Shown piece after piece: positions 1,326 through 51,408 of a stretch of DNA of 64,000 nt. A model generated the notes under the pieces. That model saw only the letters and a program-made list of their open reading frames with translations. It was not told the origin of the DNA and made no database searches. This stretch comes from a bacterium (lineage in GTDB: Bacteria; Patescibacteriota; Patescibacteriia; JAGPKW01): positions 150,538-214,537 of the forward strand of contig JAJXYN010000009.1 in NCBI GenBank assembly GCA_021780535.1, read 5' to 3'. The translations under genes and the position numbers were made by a program. Each line of letters begins with the position of its first letter. The first letter of the stretch is position 1.

Positions 1326-1434
<109 letters not shown>

Positions 1435-1567
1435 CAATATTCTTCTTTAGTTTTTCAGTTATAGAAGACTTATAGACTTAAAATTAAATAGAGATTTAGA
1501 ATATATTTTAAAATTTGCTTGTAGCGTCTCAATATTAACCAATATATTGAATTTCATCATTATTGTG

Positions 1568-4534
<2,967 letters not shown>

Positions 4535-4949
4535 ACAAGAATAACGAAATTCTTGTTAATTCTCTCGAATGTTAAAAAACATATTTAAGTAACAATATAT
4601 GAGAAATTACATATATTAATTAATACTCTTTATACTCGCTTTTTCATAGGCAGACTTAATACCTATGAAAAAATATTCTAAATTCACTCTCTATTTAATT
4701 TTTAATCTACAAATCTTTAACAACTGAGTTTAGGCTAAAATATTTTTTAGACTATGTCAAATGTTAAATTTTATGACAATAAAAAATAACCCGTGGCATT
4801 TATTATTATAAATTGTGGTAATAATAGCAAATGCTTAGAGGTTATTAAATAAAACTTGGAACTATATAACTTAAGCGTTCTAATTTTTCTCCCTACTTCT
4901 TCTTTTTTCTTATTTTTGGATGTTAACTATTATAGTTCATAAAAAAAAA

Positions 4950-10826: not shown

Positions 10827-11096
10827 AAAAATATAAATAAATTGCTTAACTAACGACCTTTCTCCTTGTAGATGTTGAGCCCGCCGTCGCTAACGCTAAG
10901 GCGAACGAGAAAATGAGAAGATGAGATTTAATACTCAACTTCTTAATTTCTTAACTTTTTGCTTTTAAAGTACAAAGTTTGAATTTCAACCTTATAATCC
11001 AGTGCTGACAATATTATTCATTCTGCACTACATTACAATATTTATAATCGTTTAGCAATGCAGTTATACACAGATTTTTATTTTATTAAAAAATAT

Positions 11097-11406
11097 CCAC
11101 TTTTTACTTCATATAACTTAAACAATATTTAGATCCGCCTTCGTCAAGACTACGGCGAATACAATCCGCCTTTGCTAAGGCTATGGCGAATACAATCCGC
11201 CTTCGTCAAGACTACGGCGGGTAACCAGCTTTCACTAAAGTTTCAGCTGGTGAAAGAGGAGAGAGATTTTTTAAATCTCAGCTCCAAAAAATTACATGCA
11301 AATATTGATTGTGTAAGATTTATCTTACAACTATTACTACAACGTCTTTTTAAGGCGCTGAGATTTAGCAATATTGTTTTTATTTTTATATGAAGTAAAA
11401 AATGGA
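11097..11406. repeat. MITE-like element: 21-bp terminal inverted repeats enclosing three GC-rich hairpin units
   Basis: tccactttttacttcatataa (11097-11117) reappears inverted as ttatatgaagtaaaaaatgga (11386-11406). Inside are three tandem about 31-bp units tccgccttcgtcaagactacggcgaatacaa / tccgcctttgctaaggctatggcgaatacaa / tccgccttcgtcaagactacggcgg, each a ccgcc...ggcgg hairpin. Further palindromes present (ccagctttcac...gtgaaag, aatctcagc...gctgagatt). The listed ORF 11172..11393 is an artefact of this element. Confidence 0.55.
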
Positions 11407-11571
11407 TGTTAAATTAAATTATTAATTAACTTATTGATAGTCATCGTTGAGAAATTTTAAAACTGAAAAACTGAAAAATTCAAAACAATTTTTAGATACT
11501 TAATGAACGTAGTGAATATAATTATCTTATACTCTTTAGAGTATAAAACATCTAAATTTTAAAACTGAAAT

Positions 11572-25534: not shown

Positions 25535-26014
25535 TTAAATAGCTATAAATTCTATGCTATCTTTTATTGTATCATATATTAAAAAACTTGGCTTATTATA
25601 CCTTGCCATAATGTCGCCGGGGTTAATAAGTTTTGCATTATTTAATAATTTAAAACTTTTTCTGTGTGTATGACCAAAGAATATTATATTATATTTTTTT
25701 AAACTTGATAAGTACTCTGCTACTGCTGGGAGATGTGTTATTGCTATTTTTTTATCATCTATTTCTATTTCTCCTATATCTTCAAATATCCCTATATTTG
25801 AATTTTTACATATTTTTTCTACTTCTGGATAATAATCACCATTGCCACATACTGCATATATTTGGATTGCTTCTATTTTTAATCTTTCTATTGTTTCTAT
25901 TCCTATATCTCCACAATGAAATAAAAGTTTTATTTCGCGGGAGCGAATTTCTTTTAAGGCTTTTTCTAGACGAAATAAATTGTCATGAGTGTCAGATATT
26001 ACTGCTATTAGCAT
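25535..26014 (-). CDS. YfcE/MJ0936-family metallophosphoesterase
   Basis: MLIAVISDTHDN, HCGDIG and FFGHTH metal-binding motifs. Confidence 0.7.
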   Translation of the reverse strand: MLIAVISDTHDNLFRLEKALKEIRSREIKLLFHCGDIGIETIERLKIEAIQIYAVCGNGDYYPEVEKICKNSNIGIFEDIGEIEIDDKKIAITHLPAVAEYLSSLKKYNIIFFGHTHRKSFKLLNNAKLINPGDIMARYNKPSFLIYDTIKDSIEFIAI

Positions 26015-26189
26015 TTTATAATATTATTAGCCTTAATAAATTAATAATAATATTTTCTTTTCCTAGTATTCCGCTCAATTGAGATATCATAAGAGCTTCA
26101 TAAAGGAACGAAAACATTATTATTAATTTATAATTTTCTATTTAGATTATACAATAAAAATAAGCGATTTGGAATCGCCTATTTTAATT

Positions 26190-28100: not shown

Positions 28101-28613
28101 ATGAAAATAAACAAATTGGTTTTTGTTATTGTTTCTATTTTTTTCGTTTTCGTTGTTTCTTGCAAAGAAAATAATAACAACAACGAAAGAAGTCTTGCTA
28201 TTGTCAAACAAAAAATAGCAGATGAAGGAAAAAGAGAAGATCAAAAAAAAATGGTAGATCTCCTATTCTATGAAGTAAGGAGAAACAGCGAAACTCTTTG
28301 GGCAAATGACATTGTTTATAATATTAATAACTCTCAAAGAGATGGAGAAAATACCATAATTTTTAATAATAATGTATATATCGCAGGGAATACCCAAAAT
28401 AAGAAATATTCCTTGGAATCGGTCGTGTATAGAAGTGGCGGTTTTACTGGTTGTGAAATAAATAACACAACCATAAACCAGATCGTTGACCGATTTGGAG
28501 AACCAAAAAATAAAGAGTTTAATGTGAAATATGTATACAAAAAATATAATATGGCAATTTCCTTTCTTTTTGACGAGAAAGGAATATTAAAAAATATTGT
28601 ATTCAATCAGTGA
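28101..28613 (+). CDS. Hypothetical lipoprotein
   Basis: ATG at 28101 is preceded by AGGAG. Signal peptide with lipobox (FVFVVSCKENN). The ORF track's longer 28053 start lacks these features. Confidence 0.5.
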   Translation: MKINKLVFVIVSIFFVFVVSCKENNNNNERSLAIVKQKIADEGKREDQKKMVDLLFYEVRRNSETLWANDIVYNINNSQRDGENTIIFNNNVYIAGNTQNKKYSLESVVYRSGGFTGCEINNTTINQIVDRFGEPKNKEFNVKYVYKKYNMAISFLFDEKGILKNIVFNQ

Positions 28614-28618
28614 AAAAC

Positions 28619-28651
28619 AAGAGCGGGATTCAGATGAATCTCGCTCTTTTA
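28619..28651. terminator. Bidirectional terminator between the lipoprotein gene and groEL
   Basis: aagagcgggattcagatgaatctcgctctt hairpin flanked by A/T runs on both sides. The convergent genes end 6 and 8 nt away. Confidence 0.55.
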
Positions 28652-28658
28652 CTTTTTA

Positions 28659-30311
<1,653 letters not shown>

Positions 30312-30459
30312 TTAATTTACTTTGATTTATGACTTGCTAAATTTTAAATCTCACAGTGATTTTTCTATCTTCATTTTTTTTGGTTCTGCGAAGTGTTCTC
30401 AAACCAAAAAATAACGAAGCATAGAAAAACACTATTTAAGTTGTATTTATAAAGTTTAT

Positions 30460-30750
30460 TTATTCAATGATAGCCAATACATCACTCTCTTTCATTACTA
30501 AATATTCTTCACCGTCTATCTTAATTTCACTTGGAGAATATTTGCTAAACAATATCTTGTCTCCCACTTTTAATTCTAATGGCCTTATTTCTCCCTTATC
30601 ATTCGTTCTTCCTTTCCCTACTGCTATTACTTCACCTTGTTCTTTTTTTTCTCCCTTACTTGTTTCTGGTATTATTATTCCTGATTTTGTTATTTTTTCT
30701 TCTTCATATTGCCTTACTATTATATTGTCATATAGTGGTTTTAATTTCAT
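30460..30750 (-). CDS. groES: Co-chaperonin GroES
   Basis: 96-aa Cpn10 ([13 protein letters not shown]..., IIIPETSK mobile loop), located upstream of groEL. Confidence 0.95.
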
Positions 30751-34238: not shown

Positions 34239-34242
34239 CACC

Positions 34243-34280
34243 ATAAATAATATCACGCAAGTGATATTATTTATTTATTT
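34243..34280 (+). terminator. Rho-independent terminator after tRNA-Tyr
   Basis: 12-bp perfect stem aaataatatcac / gtgatattattt with a gcaa loop, followed by atttattttt. Confidence 0.6.
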
Positions 34281-34340
34281 TTGAAAATAAAAAATAGCTC
34301 ATTTTACTGAGCTATGTATTCAATCTTGTCTCAAAATTCA

Positions 34341-34514
34341 TTTGGCACTAGATGGTTCGCAAAATTCTTTTTTTATTAGCAATTTTTTCTCTAAATTATA
34401 AATAGCCTCTGCGTATAAGCTACACAGTTGAAAACTTTCTCCTCTTTCCTGAAAACAATAATAAGAACCTTTATCATACAATCTACATAAATGAACAAAT
34501 GGACATTCATTCAT
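34341..34514 (-). CDS. Small Cys-rich protein (57 aa), translationally coupled to the upstream 67-aa gene
   Basis: MNECPFVHLCRLYDKGSYYCFQERGESFQLCSLYAEAIYNLEKKLLIKKEFCEPSSAK. Start overlaps the upstream stop in ATGA. Below the ORF-track size cut-off. Confidence 0.35.
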
Positions 34515-34714
34515 TTTCTAGCCTCCATATATTCTTTTTCAAGAGATTTAATACCTTTTTCCACACTTCTCCACACTTCATCCGATTCTTTAACTCTATG
34601 TTCCATTATTAAACATTGAATACCTCTAGGGGGGCATTGATTTGTACAGTTTTCGGAAAAACGGCAAGCTCTCGTTCTCATACTACCTCCAAATGCTTTG
34701 ATATCAAGACCCAA
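34511..34714 (-). CDS. Small Cys-rich protein (67 aa)
   Basis: MGLDIKAFGGSMRTRACRFSENCTNQCPPRGIQC... Local GC is noticeably above the genome background. Its TGA stop overlaps the ATG of the next small gene (ATGA). Confidence 0.45.
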   Translation of the reverse strand: MGLDIKAFGGSMRTRACRFSENCTNQCPPRGIQCLIMEHRVKESDEVWRSVEKGIKSLEKEYMEARK

Positions 34715-34843
34715 CTAATTTTTTTAATTTTACTTAGAGAAGTCTCTCTTGTTTTAAACACTTTAATAAAATTTAACATTATTTCCGTAAAAATACAACT
34801 AATAAATAAAAAAGCAGGATTTTTAGTCCTGCTGTTTGTTATT

Positions 34844-36070
34844 CTAATTTTTTACATGTACAGAAGATTGATATTGTTTACTGGTAATATTTCTTCTTTC
34901 TTCATTAATTGAGTTTTGCATTCCATCTCCAATCCCAATAAGCATTTTTTCTCCTGTTAGTTTTCCATTTATCTTTCTTTCCCATATTTTTTTTGGTTCA
35001 TTTCTATGCCACTCACGTCTTCTAAATTCTTCCAATATTCTTTTTCTTCTTTCTTCTTTTGTTTCTTTTGGCTTTTCTTTATCATCTTTTCCAACACTTA
35101 CTCTTTTACCATCTATCTTTGGTTGAATAGTAGTTTTGTGTGTTGGTTTATCTTTTTTTGCTATTACTGAATTTCTTTTTTTTCTCAATCTTTTAATTTT
35201 TGCCTTTGGAGTAATATTTGTTACTTCAGTTTCTAATTTGGCAATAACGACTTCCTCTGTTACTGGGATAGCTACTGGCTCTATCTGAATAATAGGGGCT
35301 TCTGTTACAACAGCGGGGGATGATGTTACTTGTTCTACTTTTTCTACTATTTGAATATTATTATCAATATCTGTTTTTGGCAAAACTAATTCAGTAGATA
35401 TTTCAGTTTTTGACTTTTCCTTATCATCTGCTTTTTCAACTTCTACCTTTGTTGTTTTTTTCTTTGACTTCACTTCTTTTATTTCTGATTTTTTTTGAGT
35501 ATCATCATATCCTGCAAGTTCAATATTAGTGGCTATACAATCACCATTTATATTTAAAACATCATGAGCAGAAAATGGGAAATTACTTCTTTCAAGACCT
35601 AAAACTGGGGGCATTATTTTCAGAAGATCAGTTATAGCCATTTTCACCTTACTATCTTTAAGTAAATTTATAAGATACTTTACTATAAAAATATTAAAAA
35701 ATTCTCTCATACTTTCCATGCCACACATTGATACATCTATACAATCATTAGAATTTATTGATTTTAATTCAACGAATATTGATTCGATTGGTTTTCTATC
35801 TTTAAAATATTGATAAAACATTAAAGTACCATGTGTTTCATCAGACTTTTGGATAAAACCATATTGTTTAACCAATACATTCCGACAAAAAGTAGCAATA
35901 TCGTCACGTTGCTCTCTATTAATATCAAAGCACAATCTTTTATTCCAAAAAACCTTTAAAATCATTTCATCTGCACGTTGCTTTTTTACCACTTGAAAAG
36001 ATTTAAAAGAAACAATGAATAAAAGCAAAGAAGTTATAAAAATAACACCATATAGAATAGTATTGCTCAT
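34844..36070 (-). CDS. Hypothetical membrane-anchored protein with Lys/Glu-rich C-terminal half
   Basis: N-terminal TM helix, a globular middle region, and a low-complexity basic/acidic tail. Confidence 0.45.
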   Translation of the reverse strand: MSNTILYGVIFITSLLLFIVSFKSFQVVKKQRADEMILKVFWNKRLCFDINREQRDDIATFCRNVLVKQYGFIQKSDETHGTLMFYQYFKDRKPIESIFVELKSINSNDCIDVSMCGMESMREFFNIFIVKYLINLLKDSKVKMAITDLLKIMPPVLGLERSNFPFSAHDVLNINGDCIATNIELAGYDDTQKKSEIKEVKSKKKTTKVEVEKADDKEKSKTEISTELVLPKTDIDNNIQIVEKVEQVTSSPAVVTEAPIIQIEPVAIPVTEEVVIAKLETEVTNITPKAKIKRLRKKRNSVIAKKDKPTHKTTIQPKIDGKRVSVGKDDKEKPKETKEERRKRILEEFRRREWHRNEPKKIWERKINGKLTGEKMLIGIGDGMQNSINEERRNITSKQYQSSVHVKN

Positions 36071-36151
36071 TTTATTCCTCCATCAAGATTTGTTACTTAT
36101 TCTTTAACATTTTTTTACAAAAATAACAAGATTATAAGAGTTATTTTAAAT

Positions 36152-36470
36152 TAAAAAATGAACGCATACCAAAAGGCATACGTTCTGTAGTGGATTAATC
36201 CCCACCATGGATTTGCGATTTTTATGGTGTCGCCTCACCATTTTTAGAGTGCTAACAAAATTGTCTAACACTCAAACCTCCTCAGGAACCCTAAGGGGGT
36301 GCATTTAGCTGGGCTCTGCTTCCCTGCTTTGGTATATGGCTCTCCGTATTTAGAAAACACAATGTTTTCAAAGTTTACGGGGACAACTTTAATACCTTTA
36401 TTAACGCTCCCGGGTTTTGGAGCAACCAGGTGGAGAATTCCTGGGTTATCTCCCAATATTTTCATAAACT
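36152..36470 (-). ncRNA. Candidate structured non-coding RNA of unknown class (about 300 nt) with its own terminator
   Basis: A 500-bp gene-free gap. GC is markedly higher than in flanking DNA. Short overlapping ORFs occur on both strands (36265..36465 minus, 36299..36493 plus), as expected for a folded RNA. On the minus strand the region ends in the hairpin gaacgtatgcc-tttt-ggtatgcgttc followed by attttttaattt (plus coordinates 36153-36185), just before the next minus-strand gene starts. Confidence 0.45.
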
Positions 36471-36569
36471 TTTGTTATTATACCATATTTTAGTATTTGG
36501 GTCAAAAAAGTTGTATAACTTAAAAAATGCTAACTTCCAATAAATTTTAATAAACAATCAATTAATGTT

Positions 36570-37271
36570 TTATTTTTTTATTAGCAATTGAAATATTTTG
36601 TCTTTTATTTTTATAAATTTATTATTATTTATATTATAAAAATTTGGGACAAAATTTCTTAAAATTCTTTTATATTTTTTTAAGCTACTTACTATTTTAT
36701 TTATATCTAATATATTTATTTTTTCTACTAATCTATTAAATATAAATATAGACCTTGCTACTGTTATAAAATCTAAAATGATTAAAAATAGAAAAAATAT
36801 GAAAAAATATTTATAATTTGTCGTTGATAAATATGAAGCAATTTTAGTGAATAATGGGTTTACTATAATTATTAATAAAAAAGATAAGAATCCCCAATAT
36901 ATTGAAAATTCTAAACAAATATGCCCTTGTATATTAAAATTTTTATCAGAATAATCCCATAATCTCATTTTAAATATTTTTTCTATTAATACACCTGTTA
37001 TTAATTCTATTATTGAAGATACTATTACTGACACTAGAAATACTAAGAAATAAAAAAGTATTCCATTTATATTTACTAGCTTATCTATAAATGAATTAAG
37101 TATAAGAATTATTGATAATGCTGAAAAACCATATATTGGACAATATGGCCCTTTCAAAAATCCTCTATTTATAATCTTTTTTGATGTTATTGAACAATAT
37201 GCAACCTCTATCATCCAACCAAGAAAAGAATAAATAAAAAATAAAATTAATATTTTAAGTAAATTATCCAT
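36570..37271 (-). CDS. Hypothetical polytopic membrane protein (233 aa)
   Basis: About 6 predicted TM helices. No motif recognised. Confidence 0.45.
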   Translation of the reverse strand: MDNLLKILILFFIYSFLGWMIEVAYCSITSKKIINRGFLKGPYCPIYGFSALSIILILNSFIDKLVNINGILFYFLVFLVSVIVSSIIELITGVLIEKIFKMRLWDYSDKNFNIQGHICLEFSIYWGFLSFLLIIIVNPLFTKIASYLSTTNYKYFFIFFLFLIILDFITVARSIFIFNRLVEKINILDINKIVSSLKKYKRILRNFVPNFYNINNNKFIKIKDKIFQLLIKK

Positions 37272-39946: not shown

Positions 39947-40813
39947 ATGGAAAAAGAAACAAAATTAGAAAAAATATTACCATTTAGATGGGCTGGCGGT
40001 AAATATTATGCTTTAAATAAGCTAAAACAATTCTGGGAAAATTTTGAACATGATGAATATCGTGAACCGTTTTTTGGTGGTGGTGCTGTATTTTGGGCAA
40101 AACCAAAAGTTAAATTTAATTGGATAAATGATATAGATAATGGTTTAATAGATACCTTGGAATTTATACAAGATGATGAAAAAAGAATTGAACTTATAAA
40201 ACTATTTGAAAATGAACAAGAAGCCACAAAAGAGAAATATTTAAAAATAAAAGCACTTAATCCAAAAACAAAACTGGAATCGGTTTATAAATATTATTAC
40301 TTAAATAGAACTTCTTTTAGTGGTAAAATGAAAAATCCTTCATGGGGTTATAGGCCGAAAAGAAGTTTGCCTCCTATTAGATGGAAAGAAAGAATAATAC
40401 CTTGTGGTGAAAAATTAAAAGATGTAAAAATAACAAATTTAGATTTTGAAAAAGTAATATTATCTAAGGCTATTGGTAAAAAGGTTCTTATGTTTTTAGA
40501 TCCGCCATATTATAATGCTAAACAAGAAAGCCATTATACATTTTCCTTTAAAAAAGAAGATCATGAAAGATTAGCATTGGCTTGCAAAAAAACAAAACAT
40601 AGTTTTTTCTTAACATACGATGATTGTGAAGAAATTAGGAAGTTGTATTCTTGGGCAAATATATTAAGTTTAGAATTTTATTATAGACTTGATAACTCTA
40701 AAGATAATAATAACAAAAGAAAAGTTGGTTCAGAAATTATTATTACAAATTATAAATTAGAAAATATAGATAAAGAAATTCTTAAACATGCAACAATTAA
40801 AATTGATAAATGA
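39947..40813 (+). CDS. Dam-family (D12 class) N6-adenine DNA methyltransferase, copy 1
   Basis: FRWAGGKYYALNKL (Dam motif X/I), EPFFGGGAVFW (FxGxG), FLDPPYYNA (motif IV DPPY) and a C-terminal EIIITNYK typical of DpnM/Dam-like enzymes. Confidence 0.8.
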   Translation: MEKETKLEKILPFRWAGGKYYALNKLKQFWENFEHDEYREPFFGGGAVFWAKPKVKFNWINDIDNGLIDTLEFIQDDEKRIELIKLFENEQEATKEKYLKIKALNPKTKLESVYKYYYLNRTSFSGKMKNPSWGYRPKRSLPPIRWKERIIPCGEKLKDVKITNLDFEKVILSKAIGKKVLMFLDPPYYNAKQESHYTFSFKKEDHERLALACKKTKHSFFLTYDDCEEIRKLYSWANILSLEFYYRLDNSKDNNNKRKVGSEIIITNYKLENIDKEILKHATIKIDK

Positions 40814-41678
40814 TATAGTAGATAAATCTTATGCAAGTATCCAAAAATTGGATATTTCTAAAATAAAAAAATGTAAGACAGATAAAACTCGTCCATTTTT
40901 AAGATATCCTGGAAGTAAATATAATGCTTCTAAATATATAATGCCATTTTGGGATAGTATAGAATTTAACGAATATCGTGAACCTTTTTTAGGAAGCGGG
41001 GCGATTTTTTTTAAAATGCCTAAAGTTGAATATTCTTGGTTAAATGATATAGATGATGATTTGATAAATTGTTTTTCTATAATTGCAAATGAAAAAACTA
41101 GACTAGATCTAATAAAAAAAATTGAAAATTTAAAACCATCAAAAGAGTTATTTGATGATATAAAAAATACAAAACCAATAAACTCTATTGATAAAGCTTA
41201 TAGATATTTTTTAATAAACAGAATGGCTTATGGTGGAATTATGAATAAGCCAAATTGGGGGTTTCATCCAACTAAAAGCGTACAACCTGACAAATGGGGA
41301 GATAGAATAATGCAGGCTGGAATAAAACTTGAAGATAATGTAAAAATAACTAAAAAATCATATTTAGATGTGATAAATGCTGAATCAAATAATAAAGTTT
41401 GGCTATTTGTAGATCCACCATATTTTAAAGCTGATCAAAAAAGAGCTTATGCTCATTCTTTTAATTATAAAGACCACATAGAGCTACTAAATTCACTAAA
41501 AAAGACAAAACATTATTTTTGTTTGACTTATGATAATTGTGAAGAAATAAAAGAGCTTTATTCTTGGGCAAATATTTATGAAATAGAATGGATGTATCAT
41601 ACAGCTAATTCAAAAGTTGCTTCTAGAAAAATGGGTAAAGAATTAATTATATCTAATTATAAAATTCATCAGGTATAA
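40788..41678 (+). CDS. Dam-family N6-adenine DNA methyltransferase, copy 2
   Basis: RYPGSKYNASKYI, EPFLGSGAIFF, FVDPPYFKA and ELIISNYK. It is a paralogue of the upstream gene, which it overlaps by 26 nt. Confidence 0.8.
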   Translation: MQQLKLINDIVDKSYASIQKLDISKIKKCKTDKTRPFLRYPGSKYNASKYIMPFWDSIEFNEYREPFLGSGAIFFKMPKVEYSWLNDIDDDLINCFSIIANEKTRLDLIKKIENLKPSKELFDDIKNTKPINSIDKAYRYFLINRMAYGGIMNKPNWGFHPTKSVQPDKWGDRIMQAGIKLEDNVKITKKSYLDVINAESNNKVWLFVDPPYFKADQKRAYAHSFNYKDHIELLNSLKKTKHYFCLTYDNCEEIKELYSWANIYEIEWMYHTANSKVASRKMGKELIISNYKIHQV

Positions 41679-42903
41679 AATCTAACTTGTATGGGCCAGC
41701 CTCTCTAAACACAGAGTCTTCTGCAATAATATTAAATCCATTAGATTTCCCATAAGAGTCTATATCTGGAATAAACTCTATTTCTTTTTTATTATTTAAA
41801 TTTAATTTTAATTTTATATTTGGGTATAAAACATCTGAATACTCTTTTTTATTCCAATCTAATTCTTTAAAAAAATCACCTTTATTTATTTTATAATGCA
41901 TTGGTAAATCTTTTACTGGTAATAGTATAAAATGCAATTTATTGTCTAGTATAACTCTAGGTAATTGATGATTTGATATTATTACAGAAACATAATCAAG
42001 TTCATTTCTTTTGTAACCACGATTAGGAAATCTTCCATGTGTACCCATTATCTCAACACCAATTTTATTATTATCAATATCACACATATTTTTTGATGTG
42101 CCTTTTGTTTGTATTTTTATTTTATAACCATTTTTATTTTCTATTGCTACATCATATTTTGGATAAGGCCCCTCTGGTTGTATTACTTTTAAATCCTGTT
42201 TTCTCAAATATTCTTCAAACCAAAATTCTTTTAGATTTCCTTTTAAACCCATTACAGCTGCTCTAAAATATTCTGGTTTACACAACATTTCTATTATTTC
42301 ATAATCCTCCAAATATGTTTCTTTGCTTAAAAATGGCAACAAGCTATTTTTTGGAGCTATTCTATCATCTATTATTTTACCATCTATACTGTCTAGTCCT
42401 ATGACTCCCCAATTATTCAACCTCTTATTTTCCCATTCTATTTTAGCCGGATCCGCAAGATATCCATCCCACGAATTATGTTTTGGTATTTCATTATGAG
42501 GTATTATAAAAATTCCAGATTCTGGATGTTGCAAAACCAAAAAATCAAATGTTTTTTCAGATGAGTTATATAGGTTGTGTGGACGCTTTTCTAATCCATG
42601 AGTCTTATGCAAGGCTACTCCTACAAATTTATCTTTAGTTGTTGAGTTTTTAACAGGAGTTTTTAGTTGTAATTTTAAATTATTTACATATACATCTACA
42701 TCACTATCTCCCTCACCATCTTGTATGTTAATGTTATTAATATTTTTTCTTAATATTTTTTTAAAATATTCTTCAAAAGCTATGCCCTTTATTGGCCTTA
42801 GTATGTTTGCATCTTTTTGAACTATATTATCTATCATACTCCAATCTATATCATTAAGCTCTATTATTTTTTCAAATCTTAATTTTAGTTCTTCAGTTAT
42901 CAT
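41653..42903 (-). CDS. Candidate Type II restriction endonuclease partnering the two Dam-like methyltransferases
   Basis: 416-aa ORF convergent with, and overlapping, the second methyltransferase. Two PD-(D/E)xK-like segments with Q-x-K variants (DSDVDVYVNNLKLQLK and YDVAIENKNGYKIKIQTK). The call rests mainly on gene context. Confidence 0.5.
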   Translation of the reverse strand: MITEELKLRFEKIIELNDIDWSMIDNIVQKDANILRPIKGIAFEEYFKKILRKNINNINIQDGEGDSDVDVYVNNLKLQLKTPVKNSTTKDKFVGVALHKTHGLEKRPHNLYNSSEKTFDFLVLQHPESGIFIIPHNEIPKHNSWDGYLADPAKIEWENKRLNNWGVIGLDSIDGKIIDDRIAPKNSLLPFLSKETYLEDYEIIEMLCKPEYFRAAVMGLKGNLKEFWFEEYLRKQDLKVIQPEGPYPKYDVAIENKNGYKIKIQTKGTSKNMCDIDNNKIGVEIMGTHGRFPNRGYKRNELDYVSVIISNHQLPRVILDNKLHFILLPVKDLPMHYKINKGDFFKELDWNKKEYSDVLYPNIKLKLNLNNKKEIEFIPDIDSYGKSNGFNIIAEDSVFREAGPYKLDFIPDEFYN

Positions 42904-46615: not shown

Positions 46616-46722
46616 ATAAACAGTAGATAAAACACTTTACTTTAGGGCTATTATAAGCTAATATACTAATACAATTCAATTTGCCTAAACTAATGTTTAT
46701 AACATTGGCATGGCATAAAATT

Positions 46723-46850
46723 CGTTGAAAGATAAAATTGGTCTCATGACCAGTATTTTTGCTTTCAACGTCTACACCCGAAAGGATGTAGGGTTACCCT
46801 CGAAAGAGATGTAACCATAAATGCTGTGTCGTGGGGCCTTTTTGTTTCTA
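46723..46850 (+). promoter_or_regulatory. Candidate structured 5' leader RNA with two GAAA-tetraloop hairpins
   Basis: Nested helices: cgttgaaag...ctttcaacg enclosing tggtc-tcat-gacca, then ctacaccc-GAAA-ggatgtag and ggttac-cctc-GAAA-gagat-gtaacc. GC is elevated. It sits about 50 nt upstream of the 46896 gene. Confidence 0.3.
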
Positions 46851-49963: not shown

Positions 49964-51241
49964 TTATTTATTTAGTTTAATAGCTTTCTTACCAGTAAGT
50001 TCTTCAAATCTATCTAAAATCACCTGACAAAATATTGGATCTTTTTCTATTCCAATAAACTTTCTTTTAAGTCCCAAGCAAGCAACAGCAAGAGAACCAG
50101 ATCCGGTACAAGCATCAAAAATTAAGTCATTTATTTTAGAACACCTTCTAAGTGATTTCTCATAAAGCGTAACTGGCTTTTGAGTTGGATGAAGATATTT
50201 TATCCCAGCAATTCTTGGCACTAACCATATATCAAGCAAATCCAAAATATCATCTGATAATCTATTTCCAGAAGATATTTCTTTATTCATGATTTCGTTT
50301 AGATTTTTTATGCTTTCATTAAGATATGGTTTACCAATAGTTCCGTATACACAAGGTTCATAACATTTATTCATTGCAACTTTTGGAGTTGGATTTGCAG
50401 AGTTCTTTATCCATATTGCAGTTCTTTTTGTAGATATATTTAATTCTCTATAAACCTCTTGGATTAGTCCTGTATAATTTTGATCACAAAATGAAAAGAA
50501 ATGGGAATCTTTTTTTGTGTAATTCTTTGAATTTTCTATTATAGTCTTTACAAATTTTTTATAATTATTATAACTCTTATTATCATCAACATTGCCACCA
50601 TACTTATTATTTTTACCAAGTCCTTTGCTATAGTCATATTTAATATTGTAAGGAAAATCTGTAAAGAAAATATCAATCTTTTCTTCATTAAAGATTTTCT
50701 TATATGTATCAATTTCAAGAGAATCACCACATATTATTTTTATATTTTCAGCAAGCAAAAAAACATCACCAGTTTTTATATCTGTTGTTTTTACTTTTTC
50801 TAAATGTTTTGTAACATCAAACTCGTCTTCTTCTAATTCTAAAACATCATCAAAGACACTTGATAAATCTGTATCACTAAAACCAATATTTAATAATAAG
50901 TCAGAATCATAATCTTTAAGAAGATTAAAATCCCAATCTCCGTTATTTATATTTAATCTTAAATTTAATTCCTTTTCTTTTTCTAAATTTAAGTTAAGAA
51001 ATATTACAGGAATCTTTTTATATCCAAGTTCTTTTAAAGCTTCAAATCTTTGATTGCCACCGATTATAATATTCAATCTATCAGTATTTGAATTTACTAA
51101 TAGAGGCTGGACAATATCAAACTTAGTTATGCTTTCTTTTAATTGTTCGAAAGCAATGGGGGTGATGTACCTTGGATTGTACTCACAAGTTTTTAAAGAA
51201 GTTATATCAACTTCTACGATGTTTAAATTTTCTTTTTTCAT
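49964..51241 (-). CDS. ParB-N domain fused to beta-class DNA methyltransferase
   Basis: N-terminal ParB/Srx fold (NPRYITP...GGNQRFEALKELG), then FTDFPYNIKYD and IFDACTGSGS methyltransferase motifs. This architecture is common for phage and plasmid orphan methyltransferases. Confidence 0.7.
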   Translation of the reverse strand: MKKENLNIVEVDITSLKTCEYNPRYITPIAFEQLKESITKFDIVQPLLVNSNTDRLNIIIGGNQRFEALKELGYKKIPVIFLNLNLEKEKELNLRLNINNGDWDFNLLKDYDSDLLLNIGFSDTDLSSVFDDVLELEEDEFDVTKHLEKVKTTDIKTGDVFLLAENIKIICGDSLEIDTYKKIFNEEKIDIFFTDFPYNIKYDYSKGLGKNNKYGGNVDDNKSYNNYKKFVKTIIENSKNYTKKDSHFFSFCDQNYTGLIQEVYRELNISTKRTAIWIKNSANPTPKVAMNKCYEPCVYGTIGKPYLNESIKNLNEIMNKEISSGNRLSDDILDLLDIWLVPRIAGIKYLHPTQKPVTLYEKSLRRCSKINDLIFDACTGSGSLAVACLGLKRKFIGIEKDPIFCQVILDRFEELTGKKAIKLNK

Positions 51242-51408
51242 GTTAATTAATTATTTTTTAGGTAACAAAAAATACACGGCAAAACAATATAACTTTAAAG
51301 GCAAAGTCATATTATTATGTCGTGTAGTTTTTACTTACATTACAATACTAATAAAAAAATAAAATATTAGCAATATGTAGACTGTGGAAAACTTTGCTAA
51401 AATAGGCC

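Follow-up and report, generated by a model that had tools for sequence, protein, structure and literature searches.

The window analysed here is the 64,000-nt stretch of contig JAJXYN010000009.1 (assembly GCA_021780535.1, positions 150,538 to 214,537, forward strand) from a species of the Patescibacteria (Candidate Phyla Radiation, CPR). A GC-rich region on its minus strand, situated between the gene of a CmpB-family membrane protein and an orphan open reading frame (ORF) of 408 amino acids (aa), the ORFan, is probably a stand-alone, independently transcribed gene for a structured non-coding RNA (ncRNA). The RNA would be about 320 nt long and belong to an undescribed family known to date from this one species alone; on the predicted signals and fold this is held with moderate confidence. 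The region has the general features of such genes, namely a predicted promoter and terminator of its own, a fold of the transcribed strand that is better than chance, and the absence of a coding signal. The first-pass annotation of the window had postulated an independent minus-strand RNA of roughly 300 nt at this place, and the promoter, the terminator, the strand-specific fold and the non-coding composition concur with that prediction.

The flanking genes are both on the minus strand, with the start of the ORFan at 36070 and the stop of the CmpB-family gene at 36570, which leaves a gap of 499 bp. In a crude gene map of the window this gap is the 6th largest of 57, with a median of 68 bp, and the gap of about 500 bp that had drawn attention initially is thus unusual, not unique. 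The raised GC content reported with it is also borne out, being 0.40-0.49 over 36176-36475 compared to 0.264 for the whole window, and the region is the longest island with a GC content of at least 0.40 outside rRNA and outside long ORFs. Five independent assemblies of this species agree at every position of the RNA, which rules out an assembly artefact.

Promoter, terminator and predicted fold

The elements that delimit the candidate gene are the following.

36500..36505, minus strand: -35 hexamer TTGACC of a predicted sigma-70 promoter, with a 17-nt spacer to the -10 element
36477..36485, minus strand: extended -10 element TGG-TATAAT, from the sequence and a promoter scan
36153..36470, minus strand: candidate RNA gene with a predicted transcript of ~318 nt; the 5' end (~36470) is placed from the -10 element and the 3' end lies within the T-run
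36153..36185, minus strand: predicted intrinsic terminator with an 11-bp stem, a UUUU loop, A and then U6, from a terminator scan; pair probability 1.00

The predicted promoter (TTGACC, 17 nt, TATAAT with an upstream TG; 36505..36477, minus) is near-consensus with 11 of 12 positions matching, and it ranks at the top of the 148 promoter-like sites found in the 20 kb around it. It was overlooked in the first-pass annotation and is an addition to it. The same promoter type is found upstream of the tRNA-Tyr and tRNA-Asn genes of the window, with 10 of 12 matching positions each. The minus-strand terminator had been recognised from the start. Its DNA on the minus strand reads GAACGTATGCC-TTTT-GGTATGCGTTC followed by T6, and the corresponding RNA is the hairpin GAACGUAUGCC-UUUU-GGUAUGCGUUC followed by AU6 (36185..36153); with its 11-bp stem it is the second strongest of 10 terminator-like sites in 20 kb. 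Promoter and terminator bracket the island on the strand that folds best, the minus strand.

The minimum free energy (MFE) of the minus strand over 36140-36480 is -107.4 kcal/mol, compared to -75.8 ± 5.0 kcal/mol for shuffled sequences (z = -6.37), and none of 100 shuffles was as good. The plus strand of the same region gave z = -2.67. The predicted ~318-nt transcript has an MFE of -107.1 kcal/mol and is organised as a 5' hairpin, a 14-bp long-range helix enclosing six hairpins, and then the terminator hairpin. The same fold was predicted in three sequence contexts, the closing helix persisted with longer flanks, and the pair probabilities (P) of the helices are mostly 0.9-1.0. In order along the transcript the predicted elements, all on the minus strand, are as follows.

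36442..36455: 5' hairpin UGGG-AGAUAA-CCCA, mean pair probability 0.96
36426..36441: closing helix, 5' strand GGA-AU-UCUCCACC-UGG, 14 bp in three segments, pair probability 0.94-0.99
36406..36423: hairpin 1, GCUCC / GGAGC with loop AAAACCCG, P 0.93
36331..36396: hairpin 2, long and irregular (GGUAU...AUACC) with tip GAAAACA/UGUUUUC; outer and tip helices P 0.95-0.97
36307..36328: hairpin 3, AGC-A-GGG / CCC-A-GCU with loop AAGCAGAG, P 0.90-0.97
36276..36300: hairpin 4, CCUUAGG / CCUGAGG, P 0.99
36247..36273: hairpin 5, GAGUGUU-A-GACA / UGUU-AGCACUC, P 0.71-0.99
36224..36241: hairpin 6, AUGGUG / CACCAU with loop AGGCGA, from the predicted fold
36192..36210: closing helix, 3' strand CCA-U-GGUGGGGA-UUAA-UCC, from the predicted fold

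In hairpin 4 a stretch resembling the 3' end of 16S rRNA (the anti-Shine-Dalgarno sequence) pairs with a Shine-Dalgarno-like GAGGAGG. The loop GCGA (36233-36230) could form a pseudoknot of only 4 bp with UCGC (36218-36215). A hammerhead-like CUGAGGA in the RNA was rejected, having no GAAA after a stem II and no Rfam match. There are no tandem repeats in 36100-36560.

Paired positions have a GC content of 0.57 and unpaired ones of 0.22, and in 200 shuffles the paired value was never above 0.566 and the unpaired value never below 0.248. On the predicted fold the extra GC thus sits in the helices, while the loops appear to have drifted to the genomic background. This would be the pattern expected from selection for structure in an AT-biased genome.

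The short ORFs on both strands noted in the first-pass annotation are present (66, 41, 64 and 33 aa). These four internal ORFs have a GC content at third codon positions (GC3) of 0.38-0.47 and codon log-odds of -0.39 to -1.03, compared to a GC3 of 0.07-0.20 and positive log-odds throughout for ten reference genes including the ORFan. The reading frames inside the RNA thus appear to be non-coding.

Relatives, the variable island and the orphan gene

Syntenic loci were obtained from seven related genomes (L006/L007, L008/L009, L010/L011, L012, L041, L042 and L051) by means of CmpB homologs (49-75% identity) and a GroEL cluster mate (at least 90% identity). An eighth relative, with a CmpB homolog of 46% identity, lay outside the syntenic comparison. 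The seven loci keep the gene order TruB, CmpB, MurJ-like, TsaE, GroES/EL. The RNA was not found with nhmmer (L006-L012 only), nor with a covariance model built from the predicted structure (269 positions, 77 pairs) in the seven loci or elsewhere in the window. A pattern of the loops only gave 10 chance matches and no self match in 185,579 species genomes, from which it follows that the source species is not in that collection. A second pattern of loops and junctions gave 15 chance matches in the JGI metagenomes, where a covariance-model match of 13.7 bits at a contig end (L027) also proved to be chance on inspection. In IMG/VR two patterns gave 0 and 8 matches, and none of the 8 fitted the covariance model at E ≤ 1. 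A blastn search of phage and plasmid collections gave nothing.

Several of these results weigh against an RNA gene. No search returned a homolog, and hence neither covariation nor conservation speaks for the RNA. It is absent from the syntenic locus of all seven related genomes, which shows that this position does not hold a conserved housekeeping RNA. The absence of single-nucleotide polymorphisms (SNPs) between strains in the RNA is uninformative since CmpB and TruB next to it also have 0. The fold is a thermodynamic prediction from a single sequence, and comparable z-scores occur elsewhere in the 64 kb, with 15 of 784 windows at z ≤ -5 (12 shuffles each); the region is among the most structured ones, not the sole one. 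Promoter-like hexamers are overall no commoner in this AT-rich DNA than chance would give (148 found, 151.6 expected), so that the weight of the predicted promoter rests on its rank and placement and not on the match alone. No functional partner or target of the RNA was identified.

The segment between CmpB and tRNA-Tyr (34241-36569 of the window) is a hypervariable island whose cargo differs in every one of the seven relatives. It consists of NAGPA and EamA-like genes in L006 and L008, a NUDIX gene in L042, a type IIG, MmeI-like restriction-modification system in L041, and a resolvase fragment with an Abi_2 gene in L051. In L008 there is also a 197-bp structured insert flanked by 17-nt direct repeats of the tRNA-Tyr 3' end (6090, 6287). 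The RNA thus sits in a hot spot of integration and variability. No att-site duplicate of the tRNA-Tyr 3' end is present in the window, and a 20-nt direct repeat (34365, 36570) is probably due to chance in AT-rich sequence.

The genes on either side of the RNA within this segment and next to it are the following.

36570..37271, minus strand: CmpB-family membrane protein gene (PF06541), upstream neighbour of the RNA
34844..36070, minus strand: 408-aa ORFan with an N-terminal membrane helix, co-oriented with the RNA; context, not part of the RNA

The ORFan has a strong Shine-Dalgarno site (GGAGGA) and its own terminator (34833-34813), and a TATAAT at 36136-36131 could be a separate -10 element for it. 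Among 5.8 billion proteins the only match was the ORFan itself, and it has no Pfam or PADLOC match and no nuclease or reverse-transcriptase domain. The codon usage is native (GC3 0.16). A single-sequence AlphaFold model had a predicted local distance difference test score (pLDDT) of 51, too poor for a fold search. Between two strains the ORFan holds 21 of the 27 SNPs over 6.6 kb while the RNA, CmpB and TruB hold 0. Its codon changes comprise 8 synonymous and 11 non-synonymous ones, the latter clustering at residues 279-311. The ORFan is probably a fast-evolving, surface-exposed membrane protein.

Two small overlapping ORFs are located between tRNA-Tyr and the ORFan (34338-34714, minus), one of 58 aa and a cysteine-rich one of 67 aa. 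Both have borderline codon statistics and no family match, and there are 4 strain SNPs in the 58-aa ORF. Just beyond tRNA-Asn, at 39947-42903, there are two adjacent D12-class adenine methyltransferase genes, the second overlapping the end of the first, and a convergent ORF of 416 aa. Together they are probably a restriction-modification system; the 416-aa protein had no PADLOC match.

Alternative explanations

The region may instead be a non-functional relic of decayed foreign or mobile DNA, either a miniature inverted-repeat transposable element (MITE)-like element or the remnant of a GC-richer gene, with promoter- and terminator-like signals that are fortuitous or inherited. The variable content of the region in every relative examined, and the use of the nearby tRNA-Tyr as integration site in one of them, would fit such an origin, as would the singleton status with no homolog in the searched collections. 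The closing helix can furthermore be read as terminal inverted repeats, and a second element with inverted-repeat ends is present at 11092-11410. However, neutral decay in a genome with 26% GC should erode GC everywhere, and here it survives at the paired positions. The RNA is framed exactly, on the best-folding strand, by the top-ranked promoter and the second-ranked terminator of 20 kb, and the region is present in a single copy with no target-site duplication. A relic is considered unlikely.

The element at 11092-11410 is situated in a gap of 745 bp (10827-11571). Inverted repeats of 25 nt, 92% complementary, enclose 269 nt with three tandem 31-nt repeats (11133-11225), and a weaker copy of the repeat is found at 10879. 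The minus strand folds with -107.2 kcal/mol (z = -10.6), and even at E ≤ 10 Rfam gives no meaningful match for the element, which may be either MITE-like or a further ncRNA. Strongly negative z-scores in the coarse scan (12 shuffles each) were also obtained for 51051-51350 (minus), 25851-26150, 30351-30650 (+) and 28401-28700 (+), the last of which holds a 13-bp terminator-like hairpin at 28619-28648.

A cis-acting 5' leader of the ORFan, with termination or read-through at 36160-36185 responding to a ligand, a protein or a tRNA, is decidedly improbable. In favour of it, the RNA has the orientation of the ORFan, whose start codon is 82 nt from the T-run, both are species-specific, and the only promoter-like element between them is the -10-like TATAAT, which has no good -35. 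The folding speaks against regulation of this kind. Forcing the terminator open costs 16.8 kcal/mol and only 0.5 kcal/mol is regained elsewhere; no antiterminator was found by folding, and the best competing duplex joins the 3' arm of the terminator to a strand that is already locked in hairpin 2. Because opening is costly and uncompensated, conditional termination is not supported by folding. The Rfam matches up to E = 10 include neither a riboswitch nor a T-box family, and the regulated gene would be an ORFan without a metabolic role.

The third alternative is an extremely diverged housekeeping RNA, either an RNase P RNA without specificity domain or a 6S RNA, a transfer-messenger RNA (tmRNA) or a signal recognition particle (SRP) RNA. 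The first-pass annotation had named these four classes as candidates, had seen diagnostic motifs of none and had left the class open. The Rfam search that it proposed as a check was run with Rfam 15. At gathering scores it returned 23S, 5S, two tRNAs and LOOT RNA in the whole window and no family at the RNA locus. At E ≤ 10, the most permissive setting of the search, slices of 651 and 326 nt gave just chance-level matches to unrelated families, and neither slice matched the RNase P, tmRNA, SRP or 6S models. ARAGORN found no tmRNA in the window, and reading of the sequence revealed no CCA end and no tag-like frame.

In the RNase P control, E. coli rnpB scored 318.6 bits with Rfam, and CPR forms can score very low (PMC8172020). 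In 10 of 35 circular CPR genomes RNase P RNAs were missed at standard thresholds, many of them with helices missing (PMC8172020). Since CPR RNase P RNAs can evade the standard thresholds, the candidate was compared by hand with the Rfam type A consensus via E. coli rnpB. The universal core of RNase P RNA includes the conserved regions CR-I (GNAANNUCNGNG) and CR-V (ACNNRANNNNGNNUA), and both are absent from 36150-36480. The sole CR-I match in the window (19504) is inside an ORF of 834 aa, and none of the 20 CR-V matches is within 36150-36480. In the predicted fold the ends are not paired as P1/P2; there is one closing helix, whose internal loops measure 1-4 nt, and the 3' strand of P4 would find no room between P2 and P1. 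Where type A RNase P has only P18, the candidate has four hairpins.

The candidate does share with bacterial RNase P RNA the size range and a GC island with its own predicted promoter and terminator in a reduced genome. Its AGGAA-containing strand after the 5' hairpin forms a long-range helix with a bulged U, as in RNase P. The more specific likenesses, AGGAAUUCUCC after the 5' hairpin, the bulged U in the long-range helix and the P5-like GCUCC/GGAGC hairpin, were judged to be superficial. It differs in having no Rfam match at E ≤ 10, no CR-I or CR-V, no P1/P2, no pseudoknotted P4 and no recognisable specificity domain, and conservation at this locus is lacking in relatives. With 6S RNA it has in common a stand-alone gene, a strong predicted sigma-70 promoter and a long closing stem joining the 5' and 3' regions. 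However, 6S RNA is rod-shaped and ~180 nt long, its central bubble mimicking an open promoter, whereas the candidate is a ~320-nt RNA with a six-hairpin junction and no Rfam 6S match. The multi-branched predicted shape excludes the rod forms of both 6S and SRP RNA. An 8-mer GGAAGCAG in hairpin 3 is outside a helix-8 context and no SRP family was found at E ≤ 10; apparent identities of 10-12 nt to human 7SL and E. coli M1 RNA are not collinear, are accompanied by no SRP model match and are taken as chance. The size, the GC-island appearance and the known CPR RNase P RNAs below Rfam thresholds thus favour a diverged housekeeping RNA, but the negative model searches, the missing motifs and topology, and relatives with neither the RNA nor a comparable 300-nt GC island at this locus make it very unlikely, and the four classes suggested earlier are not upheld.

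Three of the known RNA genes returned by Rfam call for comment. LOOT RNA (RF03000), known mainly from metagenomic sequence, is found at 46682-46816 (+) with 71.9 bits, here in a binned Patescibacteria genome. The LOOT motif originates from a survey of 224 motifs (PMC5737381). The 23S and 5S rRNA genes (1326-4535, minus) have no 16S gene upstream within the window, an unlinked arrangement that has been reported for many CPR genomes (PMC8172020).

Least probable of all, and highly improbable in itself, is an mRNA for a small protein encoded by the 66-aa ORF or by the 41-aa GTG ORF, the latter resembling a structured type I toxin mRNA. The 66-aa ORF (36465..36265) covers most of the island, but its GC3 (0.46) and codon log-odds (-0.49) are outside the range of native genes, and it starts ~5 nt from the predicted transcript start and lacks a Shine-Dalgarno site, although the genome makes use of such sites, as in the nearby ORFan (GGAGGA). 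The 41-aa ORF (36271..36146) has GAGGAGG 5 nt upstream, a strong Shine-Dalgarno-like sequence that a hairpin occludes in the manner of type I toxin mRNAs. It is likewise outside the native range (GC3 0.40, codon log-odds -0.65), its stop codon is past the terminator T-run and thus outside the transcript, and a transmembrane helix is missing from its product. For the ORFs of the region there was no match in Pfam, PADLOC or PHROGs. A phmmer search of the 66-aa ORF against 1.84 billion cluster representatives gave no real homolog, the two borderline matches (E about 8e-4) being translated tandem repeats from unrelated contigs. The concatenated six-frame translation had no match at E ≤ 10 among 5.8 billion proteins, and gene callers placed no gene at the locus in five assemblies. 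Codon usage, homology and the position of the 41-aa stop all fail to fit a type I toxin or small-protein mRNA.

Possible role and comparison with known systems

In the interpretation preferred here, a stand-alone ncRNA gene, the gene would run from a near-consensus sigma-70 promoter to an intrinsic terminator that is strong and unconditional. The 14-bp long-range helix is predicted to clamp the six-hairpin junction, with the terminator hairpin capping the 3' end, and the clamped ends may give a stable, nuclease-resistant RNA. Judging from architecture and context, the RNA would act in trans, its most likely role being that of a scaffold or decoy that binds protein and not that of a short base-pairing regulator. 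Patescibacteria have very small genomes and few regulatory RNAs are known from them. An RNA of 320 nt that is strongly promoted and tightly folded would be costly in a tiny genome and is therefore probably functional.

The island carries restriction-modification, Abi and resolvase genes in relatives, and the RNA is directly upstream of a species-specific membrane-protein gene; the RNA may for these reasons be accessory cargo that works with the adjacent ORFan. On a rough split, about two thirds of the confidence in a real ncRNA gene falls to an RNA that stands alone and acts in trans, and the remaining third to one that forms a functional pair with the ORFan. A further, doubtful proposal with a low probability is that the RNA and the orphan membrane protein make up an undescribed two-part accessory module for defence, exclusion or host interaction, with the RNA as sensor, antidote or scaffold. 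If so, a single lineage would have evolved or acquired a large functional RNA of a new class. The defence genes of the island in relatives and the fast-evolving orphan neighbour point to accessory or host-interaction biology rather than housekeeping. If transcribed, the RNA would represent a new family of large ncRNA from an uncultured lineage. As a singleton without comparative support it is chiefly of value as a well-defined candidate to be looked for in metatranscriptomes and in wider CPR searches.

Long, GC-rich intergenic regions in AT-rich genomes reportedly mark structured ncRNA genes, and this is the signature of the GC-rich intergenic region (GC-IGR) search. The candidate is like the products of that search in its intergenic region, long and GC-rich for its genome, in its stable fold and in its lack of coding signal. 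The GC-IGR pipeline (Stav et al. 2019, PMC6429828; follow-ups PMC8632094, PMC11109978) finds structured ncRNA candidates in such regions of AT-rich bacterial genomes. GC-IGR candidates are normally accepted only with covariation among homologs, whereas the present RNA is a singleton and hence not yet a motif or class.

The locus also resembles type III toxin-antitoxin and retron or defence-associated reverse transcriptase (DRT) modules. The differences are that a type III antitoxin RNA has tandem direct repeats, which the candidate does not, and precedes the gene of an endoribonuclease toxin, and that the neighbouring gene is a membrane ORFan with no nuclease domain and no Pfam or PADLOC match; with respect to retrons and DRT systems, this neighbour has no reverse-transcriptase domain and no PADLOC match. 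The likeness is in the layout, in which a promoter, a structured RNA, a terminator and a co-oriented protein gene follow one another within a variable island.

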